A stretch of DNA of 64,000 nt, taken from positions 192,001 to 256,000 of the forward strand of contig CAXXTF010000002.1 in assembly GCA_963665775.2 (NCBI GenBank), written 5' to 3'. Below, piece by piece: positions 24,993 to 61,698 of this stretch (position 1 is the first letter of the stretch; each line of letters begins with the position of its first letter). The position numbers and the translations under genes are program-made. The notes beneath the pieces were generated by a model, which made no database searches, was not told the DNA's origin, and was given only the letters and a program-made list of their open reading frames with translations. The stretch comes from Dehalococcoidia bacterium. GTDB taxonomy: Bacteria > Chloroflexota > Dehalococcoidia > SM23-28-2 > RBG-16-64-32.

Positions 24993-25014
24993 CGCACGCT
25001 AGGTCCTGTGATGT
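24993..25014 (-). repeat. Degenerate putative recombination site (spacer CAGGAC on - strand)
   Basis: CGCACGCTAG GTCCTG TGA matches 51104..51122 at 17/19; overlaps inverted repeat AGGTCCTG-N8-CAGGACCT (25001..25024). Confidence 0.5.
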
Positions 25015-25089
25015 ATCAGGACCTGTGAGACAAGAGAGGGGGTGAGGTCTTAGCGAGTCTGGCTAGGGACTCCCGACAGCATACCCTTC

Positions 25090-26043
25090 TTAATCGGACG
25101 TGCTGAGCTCGGCGAGGAGTTGCAGAGCGCGGTTCGTAGACATCCTTCTATCGGTTTCGGTGCCCACTACGGTGCAGATAAGTTCATCCACACCGGTGGC
25201 GGCAATCTTCTGGACCTGCTGCGCCACCGTATCTTCGTTGCCGGAAATCACGATCGATTGCAGCATCGCTTGACTCATCAGGCTTTGGGTTGCCTCGGGG
25301 AAACCGGCGTCTAGGAACATTTGCCGGTAGAATGGGAGCCGCGGGTAGATGGCAAACTGCTTCATCGCTGCCTCATGAACCTCCTCGGCCTGCTCGTGCA
25401 CGCAAACGCCGACATGCATGACCATCTTCGGCCTCGGCCTGCCGGCCCTAGCGGCTCCAGCAGACAAGGCTGGAAGGGCAACTTGTTCCATATAGGGGAG
25501 CGGGCACACCCAGCTTATGGCTCCGTCGGCCAGCTCTCCAGCCAGCTCGAAGGATCTCCGCCTCAGGGCCGAGGCCATTACCAGGATATCGTGGGACTGA
25601 CCCCAGTCTCCCCGCACCCTGAAGAACTCCCCCTCAAATTCTACCTGGCCTCCCTGCTGAAGGGCTGCCTTGAGGATCTGTAGGTATTCGCGAAGGTGTC
25701 CCAGCGGCCTCCGATAAGGGATTCCCCACGTGTTCTCGACAGAGGCTTTGTGGCTTGGCCCCACGCCGAGGCGGAAACGGCCCGGCGCCAACTCCGCCAC
25801 GACCCTGGCCTCCTGGGCAAGAGCGAAGGGGTGCCGCGGGTAAGTAGGGACGATGGACGTGCCCAGCCTTATACGCTGGGTGCGCGTCGCTGCGATGGTG
25901 AGGACGGTCACTGAGTCGGGCAGGACGCCTCCGACGGTCATCCAGGCGGCATCGATTCCTAGCTCTTCCGCCCGAACCACAGCATCGATCGCTGCTGGCA
26001 CGGTCGGCTCTGCGATCTGTACGCCGATGAGTAAGCCCTTCAC
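25090..26043 (-). CDS. LLM-class flavin/F420-dependent oxidoreductase
   Basis: AEELGIDAAW, RIRLGTSIVPTYPRHP, GRFRLGVGPSH, LAGELADG. Confidence 0.92.
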   Translation of the reverse strand: MKGLLIGVQIAEPTVPAAIDAVVRAEELGIDAAWMTVGGVLPDSVTVLTIAATRTQRIRLGTSIVPTYPRHPFALAQEARVVAELAPGRFRLGVGPSHKASVENTWGIPYRRPLGHLREYLQILKAALQQGGQVEFEGEFFRVRGDWGQSHDILVMASALRRRSFELAGELADGAISWVCPLPYMEQVALPALSAGAARAGRPRPKMVMHVGVCVHEQAEEVHEAAMKQFAIYPRLPFYRQMFLDAGFPEATQSLMSQAMLQSIVISGNEDTVAQQVQKIAATGVDELICTVVGTETDRRMSTNRALQLLAELSTSD

Positions 26044-26266
26044 GGCGACATTGTACTGGCGGCTGACTCGATGGGACAAGTGTGCAGGCCAAAGAAAGCG
26101 AAATAGTGAGAGGGAAAGGCTGGGTTACCCCCTGGATTTCCAGACTCCTAGCGGGCCACCTACTCGGGCCGGCCCGCCGCGGTTGGGCCGGATCGTGGCT
26201 CGCCCCGCGCTGGGTGGTCTTCATCACGAGTACGAGTGGCTGGCCGCATGACGATTTCAGATACGG

Positions 26267-26662
26267 ATGAGATTTTGGCCAATCGGGATTCCTATTGGCC
26301 CTGACACGTCACTCGTCATCGCCGAAATCATTCTTTCAGCCGTCGATAACGATGCATGTGGCGCAGGCTTGGGTTTCCGTTGGTACGACGATTACGAGCT
26401 TCCGGGGGTCACGAGGGGCGAATGTGAACAGGCCTTAGTGCGGCTCGAAACGGCGCTTCTTGAATTCGAACTGGGGCTGAACGTCTCAAAGACCGAGATT
26501 CTCGAGCTGCCGATGGCTCTTGAGGACGAATGGGTAGACGTCTTGAGAGACTTTGAGTTTAAGCGTACGGCTCCGGAGCAACTCGAGGACCTGACCACGT
26601 TCTTCTCGCGGGCGTTCGAGTTCACGGGGAGATTATCGGCCACGCACCCCAGGAACTGGTAG
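26267..26662 (+). pseudogene. Reverse transcriptase fragment (Abi/unknown-group, defence-type RT)
   Basis: GIPIGPDTSLVIAEIIL, RWYDDY catalytic loop, LGLNVSKTEI; N-terminal RT motifs and C-terminal domain missing. Confidence 0.8.
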
Positions 26663-26802
26663 ACGTGGGCAGCGGTGAAGGAGGAAGGATCATCGGGTAG
26701 TCTCTTAGGCGTGGACGGGTTGTGAGCAAGTACCAAAAACTGGACTCCGGGGACTGCGTCTTCGCTTGATCCTACCAGCATCGATGTACCTGGCGCCATA
26801 TC

Positions 26803-26820
26803 CACGATCGACACATAGTG
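26803..26820 (+). repeat. Palindromic putative recombination site (spacer CGACAC)
   Basis: CACGAT CGACAC ATAGTG; 15 bp identical to 58106..58120. Confidence 0.75.
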
Positions 26821-27030
26821 TGGTCACCGTGCTGGCCCCTAATAGGCCGCATTGTACCGTCGATCCTCAAGCCCCGTATTTAGCCAGAGTACGTCCAGGC
26901 CGTATACGGCTGGGCCACTATTACTGGCCGTTTTCATGCCCCGTGACTTGACCTCGGACGTTGCGCCCTCTGTTTGCCGGAGCGGGACAAATAGCTTTCA
27001 GCTATTTCGTGTATAATCACTGCATATAGT

Positions 27031-27051
27031 AATTATGTGGTCGATAGTCAC
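27031..27051 (-). repeat. Possible 7-bp-spacer variant of the site
   Basis: - strand GTGACTAT CGACCAC ATAATT. Confidence 0.35.
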
Positions 27052-27127
27052 AGGCGCGGCGCCATCGGTCAGTAGGGCAGCCGAGGTCTCCTGACTATAA
27101 TCGGCCCTAGGCAGGACAGCGTGCAAG

Positions 27128-32298: not shown

Positions 32299-32316
32299 CA
32301 CTATTCAGCCATAGCG
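32299..32316 (+). repeat. Palindromic putative recombination site (spacer TCAGCC)
   Basis: CACTAT TCAGCC ATAGCG; 32303..32321 identical to 60225..60243. Confidence 0.75.
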
Positions 32317-36312: not shown

Positions 36313-36931
36313 GGCAATGCATCCCTGTTTCTCGCTGACCCCTTTACCATCGGAGCCGGATGGTGGATGCCCTAGAGGTCTAGCCGCTCCGCCCTTGCCA
36401 GCCGGATGGGAGAGTGGGCACGGTTGCCGGATCCACGATCCGGGCCGCTATCCACCCGGCCCTCCAGATACGCTCTGCTCCGGGCAACAAGGCGGAACGA
36501 AGTCTGTGCCACACATTACGATGTTGACAGGAGGCGGTCTGGGAGTATTCTGGTTCCGCTAAGACACCTCTAACCACATCCGGTACTTATACGCCCAGGA
36601 ATTAAAGTAGCGCCAATAGGCCAGCGAGGCTGGGGGATGTCTCTCCTACGCGCAGCGCTGGCCGTCTCACGCGACCTGGGCATCCGCCCCCTCGTGGTGC
36701 GAGTCCTCTCCCAGCGAGATCCCGTCTCCGACTTAAACCCAATGCGTCTGAATCCTGACCGTAACGGAGTGCGTTTTCCTCGGGGTTCCTGAATCTGCGC
36801 CGTCGCGCCTAGAGCTAGATGCTTGGCAAGCAATCGGTCTAGACCGATTGACCTGTTTAGATACGGAACAGGTTCTGCCGATATCTCGGCACTCAAGCAA
36901 GCCACGAATGGTCATCGTCGTGATTCATGGT

Positions 36932-36953
36932 GACACCATTAACTCATAGTGTC
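36932..36953 (+). repeat. Palindromic putative recombination site (spacer TAACTC)
   Basis: GACACCAT TAACTC ATAGTGTC. Confidence 0.8.
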
Positions 36954-37231
36954 GTCGAGTCGTCGGCACTGGAGGGGGCCTGACGTAACATGGGGCCGTG
37001 GGCGATTGCGCATTCTGTGGCCGCAGGCCCGCTCCAGACTTTGCCGTGACTGCATGCGCCAGCGATCCGGAAGACGGTTCTTCGCACTGGCGGCGGGAGG
37101 TCTTGCCGGTCTGCCTGCGCTGCCACCGAGCGCTGGCGCATGCGGGTCCTGAAGGGCGGAAGCTGAAGACGACGGGTGAGCGCTGGTGGCTCGGGCACGG
37201 GCATGGGCAGATTGAGTCGAAAGGAGCGCCA
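36938..37231 (+). repeat. About 300-bp imperfect direct repeat, copy 1 (copy 2 at 61683..61976)
   Basis: Collinear from ATTAACTCATAGTGTCG through the zinc-finger ORF. Confidence 0.9.
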
Positions 37232-37243
37232 AGCGCGAAGTGA
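36998..37243 (+). CDS. Small CxxC..CxxC zinc-binding protein, copy 1
   Basis: CAFC...CLRCH; frame and cysteines conserved in copy 2. Confidence 0.7.
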   Translation: MGDCAFCGRRPAPDFAVTACASDPEDGSSHWRREVLPVCLRCHRALAHAGPEGRKLKTTGERWWLGHGHGQIESKGAPSAK

Positions 37244-37300
37244 TTGCCTTCCGGTGGTACACTCTGATTCCTATCGGACGGGCCAGAGGGAGGCCGAGTT

Positions 37301-37387
37301 ATGAGAGGGTGGGCCATCTGGGGGGCGACGGTGGCGATACTGCTGCTGGGCAACGCTATCGTCTGGCTGATGGTGGCTAATCCGTGA
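37301..37387 (+). CDS. 28-aa hydrophobic peptide
   Basis: GGGAGG RBS; MRGWAIWGATVAILLLGNAIVWLMVANP. Confidence 0.4.
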   Translation: MRGWAIWGATVAILLLGNAIVWLMVANP

Positions 37388-37436
37388 ATTGGTCCTTGAA
37401 CGGTCTCGGCTCCAGGCTAGAGTCTGAGCGTTCTGG

Positions 37437-37455
37437 CACCATGGCCAAAATCGTG
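37437..37455 (-). repeat. Palindromic putative recombination site, 7-bp spacer (TTTGGCC on - strand)
   Basis: CACCAT GGCCAAA ATCGTG, 2 bp from the stop of the last core gene. Confidence 0.55.
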
Positions 37456-37457
37456 AT

Positions 37458-38369
37458 TCACATACCAGTGTCCAGACCCCTTTCCGCTTCTGCTTTCAGG
37501 ACCTCCAAGAGGTGCCCGCCCAACTCCCCCATCTCTCGATCATAGGAAACCGGCACCCAGTCCGCTGGGTCCTCTCGGATACGCCTCGCGGATTCAGCGT
37601 CTTCCTCAACCTCTTCCCACACGAGCGCCCGGGCCTTATCCACCGGGAAGACGCTCTCCCGTCGCCAGGCATTGCTGGGCGAAGCGCCATCCTTCATCTC
37701 GTCGAGTAGGTCCTCGATCAAGGGCCGGTCGTACTCCGAGATCTGCCTGACAATGCCGGTGGCGAACCCTTCAGCGAAGTCGAGCCCGATCGCCCTGCTC
37801 TCGTCGACCAAGTAGCCGTAGATCGCCTTCACGTCGCCCGCTAGTCGGCGGGCGCGGCCGATATGAAACTCCAGCGCCTCCGCTATCCGCTCATCGAGCT
37901 GAATGCCGCCCTTCTTGCCGAATGGCGATCGTTCTTTATTGCCCCAGATGCCCAGGCGGACGGTGCCGACGGTGACTCGCAGTTCCAACGGTTCGCCGGG
38001 CTTGAGGTTAGGATTCTTCACCAGCAGGGCGTCGGCGACGGCGGGGTCGAAGACGATGGCCTCCTCCAACTCGACGAGCGCCCGCTCGAACCAGAGGATG
38101 CGGTCCCGCAACAGGAGCTGCCTCCGAGCTTGGTCGACAAGCCGGGTCAGAAGATCCAGGTTCTCCAGGAGCGACTTGTATCGGCCGATTACGGTGTTGT
38201 AGCGGGTGCCTTCCTGGGGGTTCAGCGCCCGAACCATTTTGTGGCGGTCGCCCGGCGAGAGCACCGGCTCCTTGCGGAGGCCATCCTCGATGTCCAGGCG
38301 CGCCTTCTTTTCTGGCGACAGGCCGCTAATGATCTCTTGCAGGCGCTTCTCTGGCGACGTCATGGGCAC
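37458..38369 (-). CDS. Hypothetical helical protein
   Basis: 303-aa ORF abutting the upstream gene; no recognised motif. Confidence 0.7.
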   Translation of the reverse strand: MPMTSPEKRLQEIISGLSPEKKARLDIEDGLRKEPVLSPGDRHKMVRALNPQEGTRYNTVIGRYKSLLENLDLLTRLVDQARRQLLLRDRILWFERALVELEEAIVFDPAVADALLVKNPNLKPGEPLELRVTVGTVRLGIWGNKERSPFGKKGGIQLDERIAEALEFHIGRARRLAGDVKAIYGYLVDESRAIGLDFAEGFATGIVRQISEYDRPLIEDLLDEMKDGASPSNAWRRESVFPVDKARALVWEEVEEDAESARRIREDPADWVPVSYDREMGELGGHLLEVLKAEAERGLDTGM

Positions 38370-38756
38370 CTATCCTCTCGGCTTCCTCCGGACGCTGTCC
38401 TCCAGGGCTCGCAGCCGTTCATCGAGGGTGCCTTTCTCCAGGAGGTTAACGCTTACTTGGGCCAGGTAGGCCAGGGTGCGGGAGCGTGCGATCGAGTTTT
38501 CTTGCGACAGGGTGTCTACGACTGCGACTTCGATGAGCCTTCGGATCTGGCCGACGGTCTCCAGCCCTTCGATGTCATAGGCGCTGGAGACGGCCTTCTC
38601 CTTGCGTCTGCGAAGGCCGCCCAGCCGCCTGGCCTCTGTCACCTCCTCGGCGTGGTCCGGCGAGTGCCAGAGGCAGAGGTCGCCGTCCTGCAAGGGAGCG
38701 GCCCGACAGGGTGTACCGTCGTCTTTGACGAACTTACAGGTACGAGCCGCCACCAT
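38370..38756 (-). CDS. Small Cys/His protein (HGGxSTG-like, terminase-small-subunit-like)
   Basis: C-x5-G-x2-C-x10-C-x2-H followed by ARRLGG and a helical tail. Confidence 0.6.
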   Translation of the reverse strand: MVAARTCKFVKDDGTPCRAAPLQDGDLCLWHSPDHAEEVTEARRLGGLRRRKEKAVSSAYDIEGLETVGQIRRLIEVAVVDTLSQENSIARSRTLAYLAQVSVNLLEKGTLDERLRALEDSVRRKPRG

Positions 38757-38861
38757 TGACCACCTCTGCTAATCGGGGCCCTCGAAACGAGGCAGACCCC
38801 CGGAGGGGCCTGCCGTGCGCGCTATTCGGTTGTTGTGGGAAGTTCAGGCGGTCTCGAAGTC

Positions 38862-39281
38862 CTACGGCCAGTGGCCCTTGGGGCACCCCTGTGGCTCGAC
38901 GCCCTCCGGCGCCTGGAAGGGCTCCTGGCAGGCCGAGCAGAAGAAGAGTCCGTCCTCTAGATGGCTGATCAGGCCGTTGACCCGGTTGCCGTTGGACTTT
39001 GATGGCTTGATGGCTGCCTTCTTCGGCTTGGCCTCCTCGCTGCCAGCCAGGCTCCAGAAGCGCCAGCCGTTGCAGGACTTGCCGCCCATGACGGCGCTGC
39101 CGGCGGAAGATGGGCTGCTGTACTCGTGGCCGTCCTTCAGCCGGTAGCGGATACCGTCGTCTGCTTCGACCACCTCCGCCGTATACTCCTGGCCCTTGTA
39201 GCGGGCCACGAGACGCGTTCCAGGTGGTAGGTTCCTGTTCTCGATGGGCATGACGCCCCTCCTCTGAACTTGGTGCTCCAT
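38862..39281 (-). CDS. DUF2924/RAMA-like DNA-binding protein with C-terminal zinc ribbon
   Basis: LVARYKG, YSSPSSAGSAVMG..CNGWRFW, CSAC..CPKGH. Confidence 0.7.
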   Translation of the reverse strand: MEHQVQRRGVMPIENRNLPPGTRLVARYKGQEYTAEVVEADDGIRYRLKDGHEYSSPSSAGSAVMGGKSCNGWRFWSLAGSEEAKPKKAAIKPSKSNGNRVNGLISHLEDGLFFCSACQEPFQAPEGVEPQGCPKGHWP

Positions 39282-39305
39282 AACTCACTCTGGCCGGGAA
39301 CGAAG

Positions 39306-40550
39306 TCAACGGGTCTTCCCCTCCTTCTCGGCCTTAAGGCCGGTGAATGACTCCCAACGGGCGATCGCTATCCGGCAATAGTGTGGGTCCAGTTCTAGGC
39401 CATAGCAGACCCTCCCTGTCCGCTCGGCGGCGATGAGGGTGGTGCCGGAACCGAGGAAGAGATCGAGGACGATGTCGCCCGGTCGGCTGCTGTTCTCGAT
39501 GGCCCGCTCCACCAGGGCCAGTGGCTTCATCGTGGGGTGCAGCTCCGACTCCGATGGGCGGGGGATCGTCCAAACGTCACCCTGATCGCGGTCGCCGCAC
39601 CAGTGGTGCGCGGCTCCCTCCCGCCAGCCGTACCAGATGGGCTCGTAAGCGCGCTGGTAGTCAGCCCGGCCGAGGGTGAAGCGATCCTTGGCCCAGATAA
39701 TGGTGTCCGACCAGTGGCCGCCAAGTTCCTCCAGGACACGGGAAACTGTCGGCCACTCCTTCGTGGACATGCAGACGTAGAGGGCTCCCTCGACACTGGT
39801 CAAGAGATTCTTGGCCCAAGCCCGGCAGAACGCCTCCCACTCTTCAGGCTCAAGAGCGTCGTTCTTGATTCGGCGCTTGCGGGTGCCGCGCTGCTGGCCA
39901 CCGTGGTCCCCATAGCTCACGTTGTACGGCGGGTCCGTGAAGGCCAAGGAGGCCTGCCGTGTGTCTGCCAGGCGGCCAACGTCGCCGCCCTCGGTAGCAT
40001 CGCCGCACATGATGCGATGGTCGCCGAGTTGCCAGACCTCGCCGCGCTCAACGCCAGGGTCTGGTTGGGCTGCCTCCAGGGCTGCATCGAGGTCAAACGA
40101 CTCGGGGCGGTTCCGTTTCTCGCGGCTGTCGAGGGTGCGGAGCAGGTTCTTGATTTCGTCCTCCGCGAAGCCGGTGAGAGTAATGTCGACATCGGGGGTG
40201 TCCTGGAGATCGGCGAGAAGGCGGGCCAGTAGCTCCTGGTCCCAGTCACCGGCGATGCTGTTGAGAGCCAGGTTCAGGAGCTTGGCCTGCTCGGTAGTAA
40301 TGTTGAGGTAGATGACCGGCACCGTGTCTAGGCCGAGCCGGCGGGCAGCGAGGAGGCGCTGGTGACCGCCGATGACCACCGAGTCCTGGCGCCGGGCGAT
40401 GATGGGGTCAACTAGGCCAAACTCCCGGATGCTGCGGGTGAGCGCATCCAGTTCGGTATCAGAGATGCGGCGGGGGTTAAAGGGGTCGGGGCGCAGATCT
40501 TCAACGCATACGTAATCGACCTCAAGCTCGTCACGAATGCTGCTGGGCAT
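39306..40550 (-). CDS. ParB-N domain fused to N6A/N4C DNA methyltransferase
   Basis: NPR, IGGHQRL; HRIMCGD, TDPPYN, HPTMKP, DLFLGSGTT. Confidence 0.92.
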   Translation of the reverse strand: MPSSIRDELEVDYVCVEDLRPDPFNPRRISDTELDALTRSIREFGLVDPIIARRQDSVVIGGHQRLLAARRLGLDTVPVIYLNITTEQAKLLNLALNSIAGDWDQELLARLLADLQDTPDVDITLTGFAEDEIKNLLRTLDSREKRNRPESFDLDAALEAAQPDPGVERGEVWQLGDHRIMCGDATEGGDVGRLADTRQASLAFTDPPYNVSYGDHGGQQRGTRKRRIKNDALEPEEWEAFCRAWAKNLLTSVEGALYVCMSTKEWPTVSRVLEELGGHWSDTIIWAKDRFTLGRADYQRAYEPIWYGWREGAAHHWCGDRDQGDVWTIPRPSESELHPTMKPLALVERAIENSSRPGDIVLDLFLGSGTTLIAAERTGRVCYGLELDPHYCRIAIARWESFTGLKAEKEGKTR

Positions 40551-45501: not shown

Positions 45502-46743
45502 TCACGAAGAGACGCGACCCAGATCAATGCTCCAGAAGACGGGCTCGTGGGGGTGGTAACTGAAATCGGAGCCGCGGACGATGGAGTTTCTCAGATATTG
45601 GGCCATGCGAGGAAGAACCTCTTCAATGGCTTGATATACCCGCTGAAGGGCGTGCCAGACACTGCTGCGGGCGCGCTCCGATTGAGCTACCACTTTCCGA
45701 GGCTTGCCTCGAATGCCAAGAGCTCCCGCCAAATGATCGCGAATCGTCTGCAATTCGTGTTCTTCTGCATCAGAGAGGCCGAGGCTGCCCTTCTTAGCAT
45801 CAAGTTCCTCGATTCGCCGCTGGTATTGCTGGCGCGCCTCTCTATCTACCAGGTCTTCATTGTCGTACCCGGTCGACGACGCCAGGGCAGCTAGATCCTC
45901 GTTGCCGGTGCGGGTAGTGGGTAGGTGCCCTTCAGCCAAGGCGACGAGTTCCATGGCTCGAAATGTCCGTCCGGGATGCTGCAAAAGGTGCGCTAGATAG
46001 AGCATCCTGACTCGATGGGGAATGGTCTCAAGCTGGTTGTCATAGACGAGTTCCCACAGTTTGCCCCGCCTGCGTAGTGAATACGGAGTATTGATGGCCT
46101 GCCCGGGGCCACCTAGGGCAAGACCTGAGAAGTCGAAGTGAAGTTCGGTCCCCTCCAGGCGCATGGCATGGCCGAGCGGCAGCCAGTTGCCGGGCGGACT
46201 CCAACTTGGGCTCTCCTGACTAAGGACAAAGAGTACGGCTGTTGGCTCGCGGGGAAGGTTCCTGTCGAAGACTGAGATTGCGTCCGGCCAGCACGCCCCT
46301 CGGAGGAGATACGCGGGCCGTGGCCCGGTCGGCGGTGAGGCAAGGCCCAGGCTCCAAGAGCGGCCACGGATTACTTCGGCTGGAGTGGCCTCGGTTTGAA
46401 GCGCGACTCCCAATTTCTTCGCGATAGTGCCGGGATCGACGCGCCACTGCCACAGACTGCTGGGCTCCAAGAAGACACGACCGTTGTTTGGGCAGGGGAT
46501 GAATGGCCGCGGCGGTAATCCTCCTGATTCGAGGAACAATACCCGCTCTGAATGCGGTTCATCACACTCCTCGCATGATACGCGATCCAGCGCTGATGAC
46601 CGCAGCAGGAACCCCGCTTCCTCCAGACTATCCACGGCTCCAGCAGGCCAGAGACTGGCTTCGTTCGCCAGCACTACCCTGGGCGCGTCCCCCGCCAGGT
46701 CAGCGCGGCGAAGCAGGTCGTTAACGATATCGATGAGCGTCAC
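45502..46743 (-). CDS. Hypothetical protein (Cys cluster, probable C-terminal DNA-binding region)
   Basis: CEECDEPH..CP; overlaps upstream gene by 4 bp. Confidence 0.7.
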   Translation of the reverse strand: MTLIDIVNDLLRRADLAGDAPRVVLANEASLWPAGAVDSLEEAGFLLRSSALDRVSCEECDEPHSERVLFLESGGLPPRPFIPCPNNGRVFLEPSSLWQWRVDPGTIAKKLGVALQTEATPAEVIRGRSWSLGLASPPTGPRPAYLLRGACWPDAISVFDRNLPREPTAVLFVLSQESPSWSPPGNWLPLGHAMRLEGTELHFDFSGLALGGPGQAINTPYSLRRRGKLWELVYDNQLETIPHRVRMLYLAHLLQHPGRTFRAMELVALAEGHLPTTRTGNEDLAALASSTGYDNEDLVDREARQQYQRRIEELDAKKGSLGLSDAEEHELQTIRDHLAGALGIRGKPRKVVAQSERARSSVWHALQRVYQAIEEVLPRMAQYLRNSIVRGSDFSYHPHEPVFWSIDLGRVSS

Positions 46744-47945
46744 GCGAGGACGAGGTCGGGCACCTGTTCAAGGCCCGAATCAACCAGCACTTTGCGAATC
46801 ACGCCGTCCATGCCCTCCTGATCCAAGAGGCAACCATTGCGGGTCAGAGTGAAAGTCCGCGTCCTGCCTCGACGTCGCTTGCCCAAGGGGCGGAAAAAGG
46901 CTTGGAGCTTGGCCTTGTCAACGTCCATCAGGGCTAGAGGGTATCGGTCGGTTTGGGGGCCGGGACTGGTCGCGAAGTACTTGTCGGCTGCGAAGATGAC
47001 CCCAAGCCCGGCAGGGCCACCGACCTGCAGGATTAGTTGTCGACCTCCGTCCCGGTCGCGTAGATGTATCCACTTCACTTCGATGCTCTCGAGGCCAGTG
47101 GATGCGTCGATAACGAACGAGAAGCCCGCTTCCTTCAAGAGATCGAGGCGATAGGCCCTTTCGGCGCCTGGGTCGGCCCCGAGGTCGATACCCAGAATCG
47201 TTCTGGCGAATATCTCTTGCAGGTCCCGGACCTTGTCCTTCGCACCCTGGCAAAACGTTTCGAGCATGTGGCGGTCAGGCGAATAGAAGAACAGGAGATC
47301 CGTCGCGGGTCGGTACTTGCGGCGCACTAGCTTCTCTTCCTCGTACTCAAGCATCGTCTGCCCATAGTCTTCGGGGTACGCGATGTATAGATACCCGGTG
47401 GATCGTTGCAGCCATTCCACATGGCAGTGTTGACCGCGACCCTCCCGCTGAAGTAAATACCCCGTTAGCTGTGCCGACAGGCGCTTCCACCCGGCTTCAC
47501 TCGTATCGGGCTCAGCTTCCGGTATGCCGCGTCTGCGACGCCAATACCGTGCGTTTAGGGTGTCGGCACCTCGAAAGCGGAGGATGTCGGCAAAGAGATC
47601 CTCACGGTTTACAAGGGCCCATATGGCAACGTCGTAGGCACCATCCAGATCAGTAAGCACTCGCGTAAGGTCTTCACCCTGGAAGCGCGCCTCCTCGTAG
47701 AGAAGCCGCATCCCTTCAACGTCCGCAAGTTCGTATACATCTTGGAGGTCTTGGTCTAGGTCTGTCTGCTGGGCGGATGGAAGTCGTTGAAGCGCATCGC
47801 AAAGGGCTTCGACATCCGCATCTTCTTGGTGGAGACAGGGGACGTCTAACAGGGGTCGACGTGCTCCGAAGTACTCGCGCACGAGCGCCCAGGAGATATG
47901 GTGGAGGACCCCTTTTCTAGAGAATGCGTAGCGGCGCTTCGACAT
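46740..47945 (-). CDS. Hypothetical protein
   Basis: 401-aa ORF coupled to 45502..46743. Confidence 0.7.
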   Translation of the reverse strand: MSKRRYAFSRKGVLHHISWALVREYFGARRPLLDVPCLHQEDADVEALCDALQRLPSAQQTDLDQDLQDVYELADVEGMRLLYEEARFQGEDLTRVLTDLDGAYDVAIWALVNREDLFADILRFRGADTLNARYWRRRRGIPEAEPDTSEAGWKRLSAQLTGYLLQREGRGQHCHVEWLQRSTGYLYIAYPEDYGQTMLEYEEEKLVRRKYRPATDLLFFYSPDRHMLETFCQGAKDKVRDLQEIFARTILGIDLGADPGAERAYRLDLLKEAGFSFVIDASTGLESIEVKWIHLRDRDGGRQLILQVGGPAGLGVIFAADKYFATSPGPQTDRYPLALMDVDKAKLQAFFRPLGKRRRGRTRTFTLTRNGCLLDQEGMDGVIRKVLVDSGLEQVPDLVLA

Positions 47946-48059: not shown

Positions 48060-48998
48060 TTAGAGGCCTATTGCCGCCGCCACCTTATCCCAGCCTCGAT
48101 CCTCCTGTCCCTCTAGCCGTCGCAAGTAAACCGTCGTCACTGCGAGCGAGCTGTGATCCAGGAATTGGCTGACGTCCTCCACAGATTCACCGGCGTCTCG
48201 TCGCAGCTTGGCAGCCGAGTGACGGAGGATGTGAACACCAGCGGGCGGGAGGTCGGCCTTCCGGAGATAGTACCGTAGGTTCCCATAGAAGGTTCCGCTG
48301 GTCAGGTCGTGGCCTCCTCTAGAGTGCTGCGAGGGCCACAGCGACTCCTCCGGACTCATCGTGTATAGATTCTTGCCCCAGGCTGCGAGGGATCGCTCGA
48401 TTGCCTCGAATGCTGGTCGTGGAAGTTCTCTCTTCCCCTGTTTGCCACCCTTGCCTCGGTAGGTGTAGAACAAGCCGCCTGTCTGCAAGATGTCCCCTGC
48501 CTTGAGGTTCAGCACCTCGGAGCGGCGGCGACCAGTCAGCGTCAGGGTCAGGATGATTGCCCGGTCGCGGAGGACAGCTGGGGAGTCCGGAATTACCTCC
48601 AGCAGGCGGCGTATCTCCTCGGCGCTCAGTCCTCTCGGAGGGCTGGGTGAGGTTCTTGGCCGCTCGATCTCGTCGCACGGGTTCGAGGATACGATCTTCA
48701 TGCGGATGAGGAAGCGGTAGAACGAGCTCACGCAGGCAAGCCGGGCACCCACTGTGATCGACGAGGGCTTCTTACCGGAAGGACCGATGCCGTGTGCGAA
48801 GCCGAACACCTCCTGGCTCGTGATCTCGTTTGGAGGCTTGCCCATCGAGCCAAAGAAGTGCTGCAGCATTCTGGAGTAGCTCTCTACCGTGCGACTGGAG
48901 CCACTGCGGCGTTCCTTCTCGGCGAGGAAGGCATAGAAGGCCTGCTGCCAGCCCGGCGTCCGCTCGTCGAAGAGTACAATATCGTCAGTCATGCTCAC
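48060..48998 (-). CDS. Tyrosine recombinase (XerC/D-like size)
   Basis: SAM-like N-domain; TGRRRSE (R), GKGGK (K), HILRH, LDH and TTVY (Y) all intact. Confidence 0.95.
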   Translation of the reverse strand: MSMTDDIVLFDERTPGWQQAFYAFLAEKERRSGSSRTVESYSRMLQHFFGSMGKPPNEITSQEVFGFAHGIGPSGKKPSSITVGARLACVSSFYRFLIRMKIVSSNPCDEIERPRTSPSPPRGLSAEEIRRLLEVIPDSPAVLRDRAIILTLTLTGRRRSEVLNLKAGDILQTGGLFYTYRGKGGKQGKRELPRPAFEAIERSLAAWGKNLYTMSPEESLWPSQHSRGGHDLTSGTFYGNLRYYLRKADLPPAGVHILRHSAAKLRRDAGESVEDVSQFLDHSSLAVTTVYLRRLEGQEDRGWDKVAAAIGL

Positions 48999-50159: not shown

Positions 50160-50181
50160 ACCACTATGGCGCAATAGTGGT
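50160..50181 (-). repeat. Palindromic putative recombination site (spacer TGCGCC on - strand)
   Basis: ACCACTAT GGCGCA ATAGTGGT, perfect 8-bp arms, 3 bp after a stop codon. Confidence 0.8.
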
Positions 50182-51105: not shown

Positions 51106-51127
51106 CACGCTATGACCTGTGAGTGTC
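51106..51127 (-). repeat. Palindromic putative recombination site (spacer CAGGTC on - strand)
   Basis: CACGCTAT GACCTG TGAGTGTC, 14 bp after a stop codon. Confidence 0.65.
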
Positions 51128-54502: not shown

Positions 54503-54520
54503 CACTATCCACACATAGTG
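54503..54520 (+). repeat. Palindromic putative recombination site (spacer CCACAC)
   Basis: CACTAT CCACAC ATAGTG. Confidence 0.8.
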
Positions 54521-55526: not shown

Positions 55527-55544
55527 GGCTATGCAGACATAGTG
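55527..55544 (+). repeat. Palindromic putative recombination site (spacer GCAGAC)
   Basis: GGCTAT GCAGAC ATAGTG. Confidence 0.7.
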
Positions 55545-55744
55545 GTCCCGGCTAACAGGCGGCGGCTCAGGAAAACGGTCCGTCTTTCCAGGGACAGCGA
55601 CACACTATCCGGTTGAAATGTAGCTGGGGCCTCCATGCCTAAACGATTGGCGGCCACTAAGACTAGATGCCGACTATGGGCGATTTCCGAACGTAGGGAG
55701 CGTGATCGCTACCGCGCCTCACGCTTCCCCCGAAGCGCGCCACA

Positions 55745-56950: not shown

Positions 56951-57169
56951 AGGTGACCTCCTTGGTTCATCACGGCAAGGCAGAGTGCAGCGAAATCGTA
57001 CCGGCGCCTCGGTGGCAGGCCAACGGACGTCGATAGCGCAGCCCCCCGGCGTCCGGCGCGATGACCATGCGGACGCACCGCACGTTCGAGCCGATGCGCC
57101 GAGAATATGCTAGGTATGGTGACCTGTCAACCGAAGCCTGCTTGGAGCGGCAGAGCCTGGCTGTTACCA

Positions 57170-57187
57170 CACGATGAAGTCATAGTG
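57170..57187 (+). repeat. Palindromic putative recombination site (spacer GAAGTC)
   Basis: CACGAT GAAGTC ATAGTG. Confidence 0.75.
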
Positions 57188-57276
57188 CGGGCCTCGGCCC
57201 CGCCATACTAATTCAGCGTTGAGGATCGCTATCAAGCCATGTATGATGGCCTCGACACTCGAACAAGGCACTGGCC

Positions 57277-58014: not shown

Positions 58015-58103
58015 GCGCCGCAGCGTTCCTCACCTCGTCTGGACATCAGCTTTCCCTCTGTTGCGGCCCCGCCGCCGTGTCGCAGCATGGAGTTTGAATG
58101 GGC

Positions 58104-58127
58104 CCCCACGATCGACACATCGTGGGG
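58104..58127 (+). repeat. Palindromic putative recombination site (spacer CGACAC)
   Basis: CCCCACGAT CGACAC ATCGTGGGG, perfect 9-bp arms, between convergent genes. Confidence 0.8.
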
Positions 58128-58205
58128 TTACCACACGGCGCGAGCCAGGCCGGATGACATCCCTCGGCCGGCCACGCCAGGTCTGCGGCGTTACGCGCTT
58201 GCTGA

Positions 58206-59360: not shown

Positions 59361-59370
59361 TGCCGCCTCC

Positions 59371-59694
59371 CTAGCCGAAGGTGAGGACGCGGTCCGCCTC
59401 CTCCGTAAGTCGCACCAGGTCATCCATAGTGGACATGGGACACACGGCGCTTGCGTCCATCTGACGCAGGCGCAGGCACGTGCCACAGCTCAGGGCGACG
59501 CCCCCCAGCTCGTCGAAGCGCAGCAGCAGCCTTTGGACATCCATGCGTTCGTCCCCGATGCCCTCTATCTCGACGGCCGGTCCCAGGAGGAAGACGTTCG
59601 CCTCATGGCCGCGAGACAGGGCGGCCGAACCGAAGCGAAGGGCGTTCCACACCGTCTCAGTTTCGGTCGTATTGATCACCAGCAGGTACTTCAT
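59371..59694 (-). CDS. DsrE-family protein
   Basis: WNALRF, VFLLGPAVE, CGTC..R, ADRVLTF. Confidence 0.85.
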   Translation of the reverse strand: MKYLLVINTTETETVWNALRFGSAALSRGHEANVFLLGPAVEIEGIGDERMDVQRLLLRFDELGGVALSCGTCLRLRQMDASAVCPMSTMDDLVRLTEEADRVLTFG

Positions 59695-59895
59695 GGCACC
59701 TCTCCCTTCGCGCTGGCGGACCAGCCCCTGCAATAGAGCAAATCGACCTTCATGTTCACCTCCATAAGTTTAGGTATACCGCTACCATGATATCCCTATG
59801 GCAAGGCTGCTGTGACCAATCCGTGACGTGTCGCTTGACGAGCCGAGGGGCGATAGCCTAATTTACGCATCGACTTCTCAACTAATTTGGGGGGT

Positions 59896-60084
59896 ATGTC
59901 TCTTATGGGCAAGATGGTCGAATGCAACAAGGTGAACCCAGCCAGCGGCTGCAGCGACGTCGTTCGCGGTGAGACTGAGGAGGAGCTCCTGAAGAACGCG
60001 GCGGAGCACGCGAAGGAGCACGGGCTCGTAGAGGTAACGCCAGAGCTTATGGAGAAGATGAAGGCCAACATCGAGAAAGAGTAA
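59896..60084 (+). CDS. DUF1059 small metal-binding protein
   Basis: C...GC...RGETEEEL....EHA..HG. Confidence 0.8.
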   Translation: MSLMGKMVECNKVNPASGCSDVVRGETEEELLKNAAEHAKEHGLVEVTPELMEKMKANIEKE

Positions 60085-60220
60085 CACCCGCGAGCCGCTC
60101 GGGCTCCCGAAAATCCCAACGCTATCAAACCTATGTTAGCGCCCGCCTGGTATGTCACGGCAGGCTGGTTAAGTCAGCCACCACGGCCTGGCTAATTTCA
60201 ACGATAAAGAGGGGATGGCT

Positions 60221-60238
60221 TACCATTCAGCCATAGCG
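60221..60238 (+). repeat. Palindromic putative recombination site (spacer TCAGCC)
   Basis: TACCAT TCAGCC ATAGCG. Confidence 0.75.
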
Positions 60239-60376
60239 TGCGGTCCGGCTGACACTGCTTACAGTGAGCATGCTGCGCGAGACAGAACGAGGGAGCCTGT
60301 GACCTTTGACGGGTGCCTCAGGCAGGACTAGACTTGCCTCACGGCAGGGCCGCGCCGAGAAATTAGGAGGTACTCA

Positions 60377-60592
60377 ATGGCTCATCGGTTTGAGCATAAA
60401 GGATTTCAAGTCGAGATAGATCCTGACCGTGAGGGAGGACCGCGGATGAGGATTGCGGATAGCGAGATTCCCGTCCGACGGATTGGCAACCAGTTTATCA
60501 CCCCCTTACTTCCATATGTGAAAGCGGAGGACCTGACTGATTTAGCGAGGGCAGTAGTTGAGCAGTCCCGAGACTTCGAGACTCATGAGTGA
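60377..60592 (+). CDS. Tyrosinase caddie/copper chaperone-like protein (MelC1-like)
   Basis: HKGFQVEI..MRIADSEIPV..Y..DLARAVVE pattern; directly upstream of the tyrosinase. Confidence 0.6.
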   Translation: MAHRFEHKGFQVEIDPDREGGPRMRIADSEIPVRRIGNQFITPLLPYVKAEDLTDLARAVVEQSRDFETHE

Positions 60593-60614
60593 CAGGCAGT
60601 AGTCCACGGAGGAG

Positions 60615-61529
60615 ATGAAGATGGTGATCCGAAGAAACGTGAGACACTCTTCCGATTCCGAAAAGCGAGAGTTTATTGCTGCCCTGCTAAGTCTCAAAGT
60701 TGAAGTCGGACCTGATGGGATTAGTACTTATGATCGGCACACACGCTGGCATATGGAAGCCATGGCCAAGGCGACTGATCCCGCGAGGCCTTGGTGGGAG
60801 CAGAACCAACCGCATCGAGGTCCAGCGTTTCTACCATGGCACCGGATGTTTCTTCGCTCGGTAGAGTGGGAACTCCAACGCGTTTCTGCAAACCCTAATC
60901 TAGGCATCCCTTATTGGGACTGGACTCAAGATGCGGCTAATCCAGCAAGTTCTCCTATTTGGGACCCCAGCCTCCTGGGTGGCAACGGCGACATATCGAA
61001 TAACGATGTCGTGACGACAGGCCCTCTCTCGAATCCGCTAACCTGGACAACTGTTCAACCACAGATCTCGCAACAGGGAGACCTGCTCGGCTTTCAGCCA
61101 GGAGGAGGTCTTCGCCGCAGATTTACCAATTCTATCGGTGTCCCCACGCAGGACGAAGTTGACCAGGTGCTCAATATGAGCGTCTATGATACGGACCCAT
61201 TGGATTCAACATCCACAGGCAGCTTCCGCAACACACTGGAGGGTTGGGTAGGGCCAGGCCTTCACAACCAAGTGCATGCATTCGTTGGTGGAGACATGAT
61301 GGCAGGCACTTCCCCCAACGATCCCGTCTTCTATCTGCACCATTGCCAGGTAGACCGAATTTGGGCCATCTGGCAGCGACGCTTTCCGAATAATCCCTAC
61401 ATTCCAGAAATTGGCGCCTCTGCTGGTCACAACCTTCGTGATCCCATGTTCCCATGGGATGGCCAGGCAACCAGCAAGCTGGTGACTCCTGAGGGGATGT
61501 TGAATCTGGGGAGTGTCATATACGCATAG
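60615..61529 (+). CDS. Tyrosinase (type 3 copper, MelC2-like)
   Basis: WH..HRGPAFLPWHR (CuA), IPYWDW, LHNQVH..SPNDPVFYLHH (CuB). Confidence 0.95.
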   Translation: MKMVIRRNVRHSSDSEKREFIAALLSLKVEVGPDGISTYDRHTRWHMEAMAKATDPARPWWEQNQPHRGPAFLPWHRMFLRSVEWELQRVSANPNLGIPYWDWTQDAANPASSPIWDPSLLGGNGDISNNDVVTTGPLSNPLTWTTVQPQISQQGDLLGFQPGGGLRRRFTNSIGVPTQDEVDQVLNMSVYDTDPLDSTSTGSFRNTLEGWVGPGLHNQVHAFVGGDMMAGTSPNDPVFYLHHCQVDRIWAIWQRRFPNNPYIPEIGASAGHNLRDPMFPWDGQATSKLVTPEGMLNLGSVIYA

Positions 61530-61676
61530 CATACGGTTAATAGGGGCGCCCACGATGGCTGGCAACCTGACCTGGTTGGACACGGACGCAATCTTGGCAC
61601 GCCTCACCGGGCCCCACCACCTTAGCCCGTTGTCGGCCGAAGAAGAACCATGTTCCCTCCCGCACAGCGCCCGGGA

Positions 61677-61698
61677 GACGCTATTAACTCATAGTGTC
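61677..61698 (+). repeat. Palindromic putative recombination site (spacer TAACTC)
   Basis: GACGCTAT TAACTC ATAGTGTC. Confidence 0.8.

Follow-up and report, generated by a model that had tools for sequence, protein, structure and literature searches.

Genes and sites at the locus

The window, that is the whole 64,000-nucleotide stretch of Dehalococcoidia bacterium DNA analysed here, carries the following genes and one insertion sequence around the sites that are the subject of this work:

36925..39309, minus strand: core-2 small genes encoding 142, 303, 128 and 191 aa
39306..40550, minus strand: ParB-N/DNA methyltransferase fusion gene (PF02195 and PF01555; phrog_498 at 3.6e-137)
40550..42964, minus strand: primase-like protein, 804 aa (weak CHC2 zinc-finger match; PHROGs DNA primase families)
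43572..45188, minus strand: large serine recombinase (Resolvase, Recombinase and Zn_ribbon_recom domains)
45502..47945, minus strand: two function-unassigned proteins of 413 and 401 aa, the latter matching phrog_37634 (unknown function)
48060..48998, minus strand: Xer-like tyrosine recombinase, 312 aa (PF00589 and PF02899), candidate enzyme for the sites
62780..63971, minus strand: IS3-family element with rve transposase at 62728-63591 (Pfam rve, rve_3, HTH_21)

The core-2 small genes are without family match in Pfam, NCBIfam and PHROGs and have paralogues at 50-95% identity beside other arrays of the genome. Copies of the ParB-methylase gene with 80-84% identity are found at C2:968844, 983881 and 258953, and a 93% identical copy of the serine recombinase at C1:763303-764868. 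The 413- and 401-aa proteins gave no match in Pfam or NCBIfam. The IS element is 98.3% identical over 1192 bp to a twin at 1-1192 and, as indicated by a split tblastn match of the 142-aa ORF, interrupts the downstream element's homologue of this gene. The tyrosine recombinase has a two-domain Xer-like architecture and is closest to the XerD, XerA and XerC models, which it matches with ~110 bits and thus under their cut-offs (220-335 bits), as well as to XerD, XerC-like and XerA structures. Alignment to XerD 1a0p revealed identical residues at the positions of the catalytic motifs, which we take to hold the six catalytic residues R, K, H-x-x-R, H and Y.

There are 14 sites of the form ACACTAT-N6-ATAGTGT in the window, consisting of palindromic 7-bp arms and a spacer fixed at 6 bp. 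As the arms are palindromic, the orientation of a site is set by its spacer alone. The spacers fall into discrete classes, namely A (GGCGCA), B (GACCTG), C (CCACAC), D (GCAGAC), E (GAAGTC), F (CGACAC), H (TCAGCC), I (TAACTC) and J (CCGGCA):

2823..2840, minus strand: site D (CACTAA GTCTGC ATCGTG), inverted relative to D at 55527-55544
24997..25014, plus strand: B*, degenerate B-like site (CGCTAG GTCCTG TGATGT), assigned by alignment with other B sites
26803..26820, plus strand: site F, left series (CACGAT CGACAC ATAGTG)
32299..32316, plus strand: site H, left series (CACTAT TCAGCC ATAGCG)
36934..36951, plus strand: site I (CACCAT TAACTC ATAGTG), left end of a 24.7-kb element
39366..39383, plus strand: site J (CGCTAT CCGGCA ATAGTG), inside the 3' end of the ParB-methylase gene
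50162..50179, plus strand: site A (CACTAT GGCGCA ATAGTG), first site past the recombinase gene
51108..51125, plus strand: site B (CGCTAT GACCTG TGAGTG)
54503..54520, plus strand: site C (CACTAT CCACAC ATAGTG), left end of a shared C-D cassette
55527..55544, plus strand: site D (GGCTAT GCAGAC ATAGTG), right end of the shared C-D cassette
57170..57187, plus strand: site E (CACGAT GAAGTC ATAGTG)
58107..58124, plus strand: site F, right series (CACGAT CGACAC ATCGTG)
60221..60238, plus strand: site H, right series (TACCAT TCAGCC ATAGCG)
61679..61696, plus strand: site I (CGCTAT TAACTC ATAGTG), right end of the 24.7-kb element

Thus, the window reads D (inverted), then B*-F-H-I (left series), J, the core genes, and A-B-C-D-E-F-H-I (right series), the latter in a single orientation and beginning beside the tyrosine recombinase gene. 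Contigs assembled independently from 4 public runs (2 studies) span the right-series sites A, B, E, F, H and I with 0-2 differences. Searching the window for CACTAT-N6-ATAGTG with up to 2 mismatches yielded 11 matches at spacer length 6 as compared to 0-3 at lengths 3-5 and 7-10; in the whole genome, with up to 1 mismatch, there were 36 matches at length 6 versus 0-4 per contig at other lengths.

All sites listed in a previous sequence-only reading of this DNA are present, although its coordinates were 2-6 bp off and its site at 24993 is the degenerate B*, whose spacer differs by 1 nt from B and which overlaps a perfect 8-bp inverted repeat (25001-25024). Sites A (50162), C (54503), E (57170) and J (39366), and the assignment of D (55527) to the right series, are additional to that list. 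The same reading rightly noted three exact matches, of 15 bp (26802 and 58106), 19 bp (32303 and 60225) and 17 bp (36938 and 61683), all present in two copies only; 0/100 shuffles yielded 2 such matches. Its observations that left and right series agree in order and orientation, B*-F-H-I recurring within A-B-C-D-E-F-H-I, and that the D (GCAGAC) pair is inverted also hold.

Homology breaks and cargo turnover

The DNA between paired sites is unrelated, as had been claimed: self-BLASTN of the window returned only the IS copies and a 303-bp repeat (36929-37231 versus 61674-61976, 89% identity) starting at site I. The left copy of this repeat begins 5 bp ahead of its site I, which lies within the last codons of ORF 36925-37353 (minus strand), whereas the right site I is followed by the repeat and the head of a second core-2 module. 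The cargo names proposed earlier are backed by Pfam for the Mo-enzyme, DnaJ-HTH, ABC transporter parts, SQR-like protein, DsrE and tyrosinase; PLD, DUF1059 and melC1 had no Pfam match in the window cargo.

Homology to paralogous loci frequently ends at the sites. Paralogous BLASTN alignments end within 10 bp of a site at 23/60 class sites, as compared to 4.3 on average and 9 at most for shifted controls (n=58). The cassette-side flank of D at 2823 matches C1:776554-778331 with 97.8% identity over 1796 bp, and this homology stops at the site, as does that of the left flank of H at 60221, which is 91% identical to that of C2:462032. To the right of F at 26803, the window matches C1:782060-785035 with 97.8% identity over 2976 bp from site offset 0 onwards; the left flanks are unrelated. 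The C-D cassette (54503-55544) matches C2:981415-980368 at 96.7%, and each copy has a site at either end. In the C2 copy, the D site is chimeric: its left arm is GGCTAT as in the window and its right arm TTAGTG as in C2:353959, whose right flank runs on at 98% into the next slot.

Genome-wide, 12 spacer classes recur 2-11 times among 80 sites (up to 2 mismatches). When the 40-bp flanks of same-class site pairs (n=725) were compared, both flanks were shared in 6 pairs, only one in 19 and none in 700. Flank homology was detected for 22/525 same-spacer pairs, always on the same side, and for 27/15,406 different-spacer pairs, 24 of these 27 representing the coding-region J position. At J, both flanks are conserved across elements and the spacer varies (CCGGCA, TCGACA, CGCACA, CCGGGC, GCTTCC). 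Arms travel only weakly with the homologous flank, being identical in 9/19 pairs on the homologous side versus 5/19 on the other. Cargo differs between arrays: in a crude count of ORFs of at least 80 aa from 9 arrays, compared with 15 array regions, 31/179 cargo ORFs had a homologue in any other array region. Cargo is not strictly faithful to its slot, since clusters 35 and 36 are found in slot C-F of G029, whereas in G031a they fill slot A-B and the one after it.

The spacers had also been proposed to be orthogonal, which is not clearly the case. Classes C/F and D/M are each 1 nt apart and the mean pairwise Hamming distance is 4.09 versus 4.5 expected at random, so selection for orthogonality is not obvious.

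Spacer order in other loci and genomes

The sequence-only reading had expected spacer order to outlast cargo in other arrays. In arrays beside homologous recombinases elsewhere, order and orientation are indeed kept and cargo differs: the same classes recur beside 59-91% identical recombinases in other genomes, and on C1 a 91% identical recombinase is followed by A B C D F. In 8 recombinase-linked arrays besides that of the window (G000 C1, G015, G029, G033, G040 and three in G031), 42 reference-class pairs were concordant in order and 0 discordant, and 44/44 labelled sites had the same orientation, counts that are not independent because the compared genomes are related. The B spacer occurs upstream of the recombinase in 16/25 loci, including 2 loci of a Thermoleophilia MAG, and the recombinase is followed by B and C in G187, G365 and G288. 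An A or A-like site adjoins the recombinase gene in other genomes too.

The order is conserved, albeit with exceptions. Class G is placed between F and H at G000 C2:345952-348195, but separates D from E in G040 and precedes E in G031b, and scrambled arrays occur at G000 C2:984-1024 kb and 1435-1441 kb. Motif counts (up to 1 mismatch) are 36, 9, 8, 10, 4, 6 and 6 in 7 recombinase-positive genomes, as compared to 0-3 in 33/34 recombinase-negative genomes, the exception being G017 with 7. Few or no motif matches were found in the examined flanks of ~62-70% identical recombinases in G134, G136, G155, G171, G194, G203, G218, G230, G232, G246 and G387, several of these flanks being shortened by contig ends.

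Comparison with known systems and candidate mechanism

The closest known system are the Acinetobacter pdif modules, i.e. dif modules with XerC/XerD sites on Rep_3 plasmids. There, crossovers were mapped within pdif sites, recombination involves identical or nearly identical spacers, one spacer mismatch did not block it, and single modules are proposed to be exchanged via cointegrate formation and resolution between same-spacer sites (PMC13141974). Both systems place gene modules between Xer-type sites, putative ones here, with 6-bp spacers, with cargo varying among otherwise related replicons; however, pdif sites have distinct 11-bp XerC and XerD arms (PMC13141974), alternate between C/D and D/C and rely on host enzymes, whereas here the arms are palindromic with 7 conserved bp, array sites are all co-oriented and a putatively dedicated recombinase gene heads the array. 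Further differences are the conservation of spacer-class order across genera and the chromosomal integration in Chloroflexota of elements that also carry a serine recombinase.

Integrons (IntI, attI, attC) likewise have a tyrosine recombinase gene heading a one-directional, variable cargo array bounded by sites. However, the recombinase scored 52 and 32 bits against integron-integrase models with cut-offs of 265 and 435. Moreover, attC sites fold as imperfect palindromes and measure roughly 60-140 nt, and most integron cassettes consist of a single ORF that lacks a promoter, all facing the same way. The present sites, in contrast, are simple and 18-20 bp long, each position has its own spacer, and a slot contains one or several genes in either orientation. 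Xer-dependent integrating elements (IMEX) and single-recombinase Xer systems (XerA, XerH, XerS) resemble the present one in the 6-bp spacer and in the relatedness of the recombinase to XerD, XerA and XerC; they differ in that scores fall far under the equivalog cut-offs (110 versus 220-335 bits) and in having one dif-like site rather than many per element, and here there is no link to chromosome dimer resolution. In the engineered heterospecific lox/FRT sites used for RMCE, one recombinase acts on the same arms with spacer variants meant to react only with themselves, and a double crossover swaps the DNA between two different addresses. One recombinase, common arms and differing spacers as addresses would also describe the present system, in which this specificity is predicted. 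Whereas lox sites have 13-bp arms and an 8-bp spacer and engineered sets usually comprise 2-4 addresses, the natural array offers 9 or more addresses per element and 15 or more classes in total, its arms being conserved over 7 bp.

The ACACTAT-N6-ATAGTGT sites are most likely the core recombination sites of the candidate Xer-like recombinase. That is, the best explanation, to which we assign a probability of roughly 0.68, is that they serve the recombinase encoded at 48060-48998 on slotted mobile elements that exchange cargo. Alternatively, they could be used by another enzyme, be it a host Xer-type one, as in the case of pdif sites and IMEX elements, or another element-borne one, the adjacent tyrosine recombinase only integrating and excising the element. 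This appears unlikely, even though the genome encodes at least 8 further tyrosine recombinase homologues (25-32% identity), host XerC/XerD act in the pdif system (PMC13141974), and co-occurrence cannot separate the recombinase from the serine recombinase or host Xer, as it is linked with the sites on one element. An A or A-like site is located ~70-104 bp from the recombinase start codon in G031a, G029, L049 and L054, and B at -93 in L048. In 33/34 related genomes lacking the recombinase, the motif stays near background, and palindromic arms suit one recombinase rather than a XerC/XerD pair. Large serine recombinases use longer sites with a 2-bp crossover, which counts against the serine recombinase as the enzyme, and none was seen in the examined parts of the G015, G029, G033 and G040 arrays.

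It is improbable that the sites instead bind a non-recombinase protein (repressor, partition/silencing protein or methylase) or represent insulators or terminators, their order reflecting descent and cargo being replaced otherwise. Dimeric DNA-binding proteins, too, typically recognise palindromic arms set a fixed distance apart, the arms are short (7 bp), and the element-encoded proteins include a ParB-N/methylase fusion and HTH proteins. However, this would leave unexplained the discrete spacer classes across genera in unrelated flanks (700/725 pairs share none), the uniform spacer orientation (44/44), the homology breaks and the chimeric D site. At both B (51108) and F (58107), the neighbouring genes converge on the site, which sits between their stop codons, an arrangement that does not suit an operator or promoter. 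No T-run follows the sites in flanks inspected by eye. Tandem duplication of one element followed by divergence and chance resemblance, leaving functionless sites, is disfavoured and we regard it as highly improbable. Tandem related modules are present, with 89% identity in the 303-bp repeat and 70-84% in core-2 genes, but there is no BLASTN similarity between paired sites beyond 303 bp although the 18-bp sites match, while neutral divergence would wipe out 18-bp islands first; moreover, the classes recur in other genera and another phylum.

Returning to cargo-exchanging elements, the cassette-slot idea of the sequence-only reading is retained in that order and orientation are kept, cargo varies and homology breaks at sites, whereas clear orthogonality and a symmetric layout are not. 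Rather than two symmetric slot sets around one recombinase, the two series are better understood as a tandem resembling a cointegrate, in which a complete 24.7-kb element (36934-61696) adjoins both the tail and the head of another element that has decayed. Both would belong to an element family integrated in Chloroflexota, whose core comprises the ParB-methylase, primase-like protein, large serine recombinase and tyrosine recombinase. Counted from the recombinase gene, the site row would run A, B, C, D, E, F, (G), H, I and then J inside the ParB-methylase gene, the DNA between sites representing slots whose gene content varies by element copy.

We infer the acting enzyme, the dependence on spacer identity and a two-step exchange from these sequence patterns. 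As with other tyrosine recombinases, recombination would be efficient only between matching spacers, so that sites within one array would be mutually inert and each would react with its namesake in a second element. A single crossover at a matching site would then fuse two elements. The window may capture this fused state, that is the 24.7-kb element between the two I sites set in the remnant of a related element, whose tail B*-F-H-I would lie on the left and whose head, the second core-2 module hit by the IS, on the right. A second crossover at another matching site would resolve the fusion and swap the segment between two addresses, and such a two-step exchange would also hold the order of addresses fixed. 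Sites in fixed order with different 6-base centres look like a natural system for swapping cargo slot by slot.

Spacer classes and the two series of sites

The three exact matches that the sequence-only reading had quoted between the two series hold up: each is present exactly twice (a 15-mer at 26802 and 58106, a 19-mer at 32303 and 60225, a 17-mer at 36938 and 61683), whereas two matches never arose in 100 shuffles. Comparison of the ten quoted places with one another revealed the common form CACTAT-N6-ATAGTG. With up to two arm mismatches, a spacer length of 6 yielded 11 window sites as compared to zero to three for lengths 3–5 and 7–10. Across the whole genome (two contigs, 2.35 Mb), in which the window occupies positions 192001–256000 of contig C2, 80 sites were found at up to two mismatches and 36 at up to one; the other spacer lengths gave 5–25 sites per contig, and 0–4 at up to one mismatch. 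A count table of 60 oriented sites extended the conservation by one base on each side, resulting in the 7-bp palindromic arms ACACTAT and ATAGTGT. The 80 genome sites do not have a random assortment of spacers by any measure: each of twelve canonical spacers is present at 2 to 11 sites, for example CGACAC (11 sites), TAACTC (7) and TCAGCC (6). We labelled the classes A (GGCGCA), B (GACCTG), C (CCACAC), D (GCAGAC), E (GAAGTC), F (CGACAC), G (GGGAAC), H (TCAGCC), I (TAACTC) and J (CCGGCA); further classes occur in the arrays of other genomes, namely K (TCGACA), L (CGCACA), M (GCCGAC), N (CGGAAG) and O (TCCCTC). The spacers had been proposed to be orthogonal. They do fall into discrete classes, but these are not clearly orthogonal: C and F as well as D and M are one base apart, and the mean distance between classes, 4.09, does not exceed the 4.5 of random 6-mers.

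Sites in and next to the window
2823, minus strand: D, motif match
24997: B*, left series, degenerate relative of B (CGCTAG GTCCTG TGATGT), one spacer base different
26803, plus strand: F, left series
32299, plus strand: H, left series
36934, plus strand: I, left series
39366–39383, plus strand: J, inside the 3' end of the ParB-methylase gene
50162, plus strand: A, right series
51108, plus strand: B, right series
54503, plus strand: C, right series
55527, plus strand: D, right series
57170, plus strand: E, right series
58107, plus strand: F, right series
60221, plus strand: H, right series
61679, plus strand: I, right series
C2:258995 (same contig, just beyond the window), plus strand: next J

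The left-hand partner of B, read at 24993, is thus indeed a relative of B, albeit a degenerate one with one spacer base off. Overlapping this site, at 25001–25024, is a perfect inverted repeat of 8 bp whose loop is 8 nt long (AGGTCCTG ... CAGGACCT). Sites B (51108) and F (58107) of the right series lie between convergent gene ends and A lies 6 bp past a stop codon, positions that do not fit operators or promoters; on the location between convergent genes and on the existence of spacer classes, a role of the sites as operator or terminator was rejected.

The DNA between paired sites had been read as unrelated, and self-BLASTN of the window agrees, finding only a 303-bp repeat and two copies of an insertion sequence. 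The repeat begins 5 bp before each I site (36929–37231 versus 61674–61976, 89%). The insertion sequence is an IS3-family element with an rve transposase, present at 1–1192 and 62780–63971 in direct orientation and with 98.3% identity; its two copies bracket ~62.8 kb holding both site series, and the right copy splits a 142-aa core gene of the downstream element. The G+C content of the window is 59.7% as compared to 63.2–63.5% for the two contigs, which fits a region rich in acquired DNA.

The core-2 genes following the left I site, comprising a 142-aa ORF, genes for 303-aa and 128-aa proteins and the ParB-methylase gene, recur after the right I site with 70–84% protein identity. Because they do so, 36934–61696 is best read as one complete 24.7-kb element with an I site at either end. 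The tail of a second, related element is then represented by the left series B*-F-H-I and its head by the DNA after 61679, which is the arrangement expected if a circular element had recombined at I with a resident relative.

Core genes
Four small core genes without family matches
39306–40550: ParB-N/DNA-methylase fusion
40550–42964: primase-like protein
43572–45188: large serine recombinase
Two core proteins of unknown function
48060–48998: tyrosine recombinase, 312 aa, SAM-like and catalytic domains

The tyrosine recombinase matches PF02899 at residues 21–100 and PF00589 at residues 124–293, the two-domain architecture of the tyrosine recombinase superfamily. Alignment with XerD (1a0p) pairs TGRRRSE with TGLRVSE, GKGGK with GKGNK, HILRH with HVLRH, LDHSSL with LGHSDL and VY with IY. 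These XerD motifs presumably hold the catalytic R, K, H-x-x-R, H(/W) and Y, and the residues of the recombinase at the positions paired with R, K, H-x-x-R, H and Y are identical. By domains and motifs it is predicted to belong to the tyrosine recombinase superfamily, among the Xer-like simple recombinases. It does not qualify as an orthologue of XerC, XerD or XerA, scoring well under the NCBIfam equivalog cut-offs (102.3 versus 335, 110.2 versus 329.6 and 110.3 versus 220 bits, respectively).

Cargo of the slots
A–B, right: alpha/beta hydrolase
B–C, right: M1 peptidase
C–D, right: another alpha/beta hydrolase
D–E, right: family III CoA-transferase
E–F, right: unknown protein
F–H, right: SQR-like flavoprotein and DsrE-like protein
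H–I, right: tyrosinase
B*–F, left: luciferase-like monooxygenase
F–H, left: molybdopterin oxidoreductase and DnaJ-HTH protein
H–I, left: parts of a peptide-type ABC importer

The DnaJ-HTH protein (30712–31800, minus strand) unites a DnaJ J-domain and a Cro/C1-type HTH in one polypeptide, an unusual pairing. Between the minus-strand D site and B*, a catabolic cluster (7274–23092) encodes two acyl-CoA dehydrogenases, two thiolase-like proteins, an enoyl-CoA hydratase, an amidohydrolase, a ChsH2-like OB-fold protein and ABC permeases and contains three family III CoA-transferase genes, one of them two-domain; it may represent a very large cargo or host DNA.

Sites as breakpoints of homology

When sites of one class were aligned on their spacers, many cases emerged in which one flank is near-identical and the other unrelated, with the switch occurring at the site. 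For class D, only the left flank is common to C1:778313, C2:194823 and C2:995600 (C1 and C2 being the two contigs); for class C, only the right flank is common to the window's C site and C2:981398, and for class F only the right flank is common to C1:782060, the window's left F site and C2:1020398. The site at C2:977218 joins the left flank of C1:313252 to the right flank of C1:683710. Quantification supports this picture: the end of a paralogous BLASTN match lies within 10 bp of 23 of the 60 class sites, as compared to a mean of 4.3 and a maximum of 9 such sites in 58 controls shifted by 100–3000 bp. Comparison of 725 same-class pairs, drawn from 131 class sites of this genome and its relatives, revealed six pairs with both 40-bp flanks in common, 19 with exactly one and 700 with neither; therefore, the sites are mostly 18-bp islands within unrelated DNA. 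Among 525 same-spacer pairs, 22 have flank homology, in every case on the same side, as compared to 27 of 15,406 different-spacer pairs. The J position accounts for 24 of these 27, having common coding flanks and differing in the spacer alone; three lie elsewhere. These counts are indirect evidence on whether sites need identical or near-identical spacers to recombine.

At the J position, the spacer varies between elements (CCGGCA, TCGACA, CGCACA, CCGGGC, GCTTCC) and both coding flanks are kept, as seen by comparing 39366–39383 with the equivalent positions in three other genomes (G031, G033, G015) and in the Thermoleophilia locus L050. The spacer there forms a small hypervariable patch in a conserved ParB-methylase gene.

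The most detailed case is the C–D cassette (54503–55544), a second copy of which, 96.7% identical, occupies C2:981415–980368; each copy has a site at either end. The D site of the second copy reads GGCTAT GCGGAC TTAGTG in window orientation. Its left arm GGCTAT is the unusual arm of the window's D site and its right arm TTAGTG is that of C2:353959; from the latter site, the homology of the right flank extends into the next slot at 98%. Such a chimeric site, with the left half apparently from one lineage and the right half from another, would be the expected trace of a crossover between the arms. Arm identity follows the homologous flank weakly (9 of 19 cases versus 5 of 19 on the other side), which is too weak to place the crossover.

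Independently assembled contigs from four public runs of two studies, covering the right series, read through sites A, B, E, F, H and I and differ from the window at zero to two positions. Sites C and D are unbridged, and contigs stop next to both, as expected because the C–D cassette is repeated. Six runs from two studies contain 93–98% of the sampled words of 52000–61900. When Logan contigs of the runs X4, X6, X7 and X9 were compared with 43000–62900, none of the joints listed lay at a motif site, contigs being unable to show rare junctions; the listed joints had short sides of 20–55 letters or corresponded to the C1 paralogue (45206 to 48079, 1613 letters between).

Ordered arrays in other genomes

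The observation extends well beyond the window. Within the same genome, C1:766491–767420 encodes a recombinase 91% identical to that of the window, with a 93% identical serine recombinase beside it, followed by sites A, B, C, D and F, and C2:970011–981398 carries J, I, H, F, E and C on the other strand. A second tyrosine recombinase (C2:1438576–1439352), 26% identical to the window's, is placed like cargo, with an I site at 1438330 on one side and a C site at 1440014 on the other. Homologues of the window's recombinase with 59–78% identity are present in 6 of 40 related genomes, and a match was found in 25 of 401 genomes of the class sample, a tally that takes in the window's own genome and the unpublished genome G272.

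In the eight recombinase-linked arrays besides that of the window, 42 of 42 pairs of reference classes follow the window order and all 44 labelled sites point the same way. Class G shifts position between genomes, and two regions of the window's own genome are scrambled. Cargo ORFs, called crudely as the longest non-overlapping set of at least 80 aa and clustered by BLASTP (E < 1e-8, at least 50% coverage), vary between arrays: only 31 of the 179 from the nine recombinase-linked arrays have a homologue in any other of 15 array regions. Clusters 35 and 36 sit in different slots in two genomes. The comparative check on other genomes bore out the expectation of conserved spacer order with variable cargo.

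Of 25 further loci of a species-level genome collection, 16 have the B spacer upstream of the recombinase gene; these belong to MAGs of Dehalococcoidia and other Chloroflexota, with two loci coming from one Thermoleophilia MAG. Often the gene is separated from B by an A or A-like site, and sufficiently long flanks have C on the far side of B. B followed by C is also seen in the genomes G187, G365 and G288. At one locus (L049), the starts of a C and a D site ~8.7–8.8 kb upstream of the recombinase gene are separated by 97 bp only, resembling a slot without cargo. The two loci of the Thermoleophilia MAG, which is actinobacterial (L050, L051), encode recombinase homologues of 66–68% identity with a B spacer upstream, suggesting that the element family has been transferred across phyla. 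A B-site scan of metagenomes with a query of 16 specified bases returned at least 80 loci, many of which may be chance matches by our own estimate for 16 specified bases; among the loci listed, only six (L104, L121, L126, L143, L144, L154) are accompanied, on the side and strand expected, by a recombinase homologue with 55% identity or more.

Matched spacers as proposed addresses for recombination

Taken together, the best explanation of these data is that the sites are crossover sites on a family of mobile elements, recombined by the element's own tyrosine recombinase; we put this at roughly two chances in three. The shortness of the conserved arms speaks against it, and the catalyst may also be the serine recombinase or a host enzyme. 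Seven recombinase-positive genomes contain 36, 9, 8, 10, 4, 6 and 6 motifs, and 33 of 34 recombinase-negative genomes contain zero to three, the exception being the fragmented G017 with seven. This co-occurrence is an association and not proof of the enzyme, because the genomes are related and gene and sites are linked. The seven motif matches of G017 belong to classes C, G and others, in a genome lacking a recombinase match at E <= 1e-30; several lie ~100 bp from contig ends, and short-read assemblies seem to break at arrays. Homologues of ~62–70% identity in eleven other genomes have few or no motif matches in their flanks, some of which are ended by contig ends, and therefore the link between enzyme and motif is limited to a subclade. 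In that ~62–70% identity clade, no alternative palindromic motif was found, the sole repeated palindrome being that of a CRISPR-like array. This array adjoins the recombinase homologue of locus L065 (G194:C2, ~2.7–3.6 kb into the locus), and its repeat, present in at least 12 copies 71–87 bp apart, contains CCACCGC CTTTCG GCGATGG. More distant homologues on an IMG/VR contig (L060, 35% identity) and a Chlorohelix plasmid (L061, 36%) are accompanied neither by the motif nor by another repeated 6-N6-6 palindrome.

Known systems share parts of this design. The attC sites of integrons are long, folded, imperfect palindromes at cassette ends; by contrast, the sites here are simple 18–20 bp sequences in which arms of 7 bp enclose a 6-bp spacer, and units of several genes, in either orientation, fill the slots. 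An integron is rejected on this site form and on the integrase scores (TIGR02249, 52 versus 265 bits; NF011946, 32 versus 435). Cre/lox employs 13-bp arms and an 8-bp spacer, whereas the present motif is enriched at spacer length 6 alone, with 7 bp conserved per arm; engineered cassette exchange with heterospecific lox or FRT sites resembles it in logic only. The closest described system is that of the dif modules on Acinetobacter Rep_3 plasmids, where the XerC and XerD arms of a pdif site, 11 bp each, are separated by a 6-bp spacer (PMC13141974). There, crossovers were mapped within the sites, and recombination took place between sites whose spacers are identical or nearly so, one spacer mismatch still allowing recombination; single modules are modelled to be exchanged through cointegrate formation and resolution between same-spacer sites, and C and D modules alternate, with asymmetric sites in alternating orientation (PMC13141974). 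Both systems have Xer-type sites, a 6-bp spacer and homology between replicons that breaks at the sites. However, the arms here are palindromic and of 7 bp rather than XerC and XerD arms, the sites all face one direction without alternation, a dedicated recombinase heads the array, and hosts and replicons differ. Membership among dif modules is rejected on arms, orientation, dedicated recombinase and the different hosts and replicons, despite the likeness in outline. A dedicated recombinase heading a one-directional array whose spacer-class order is conserved across genera is undescribed for pdif modules, and a full-text search with partial literature coverage returned no paper on arrays in which the arms are identical and the spacers distinct and ordered.

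How would crossover at such sites act? Judging by what is established for tyrosine recombinases, spacers should have to match for strands to be exchanged across them, and sites within one array would thus be mutually inert and reactive with their namesakes in another element. One crossover would fuse two elements, the window at I representing the fused state, and a second crossover at another shared address would resolve them with the segment between exchanged. Such exchange would leave the addresses in their original order, and this would explain why order survives complete cargo turnover; conserved order would then be a by-product of slot-by-slot exchange. Of the cassette-exchange interpretation offered earlier, kept order and orientation and varied cargo are observed, and the mechanism is inferred. 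More tentatively, and at somewhat less than even odds, the family may constitute a natural multi-address cassette-exchange platform, in which one small recombinase, one pair of arms and at least 15 spacer 'addresses' setting the pairing allow elements to fuse and resolve at matches and to trade cargo slot by slot, the J spacer serving as a lineage barcode that limits which elements fuse at the core.

If so, one recombinase together with a panel of natural spacer variants would be of practical use for multiplexed cassette exchange, and the arrays would offer a concrete, testable natural case of spacer identity as address. Modular exchange at Xer-type sites would not be peculiar to Acinetobacter plasmids and would reach Chloroflexota of the environment and, as a trace, Thermoleophilia. 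The persistence of a fixed scaffold in these elements despite the turnover of nearly all of their cargo would be explained as well.
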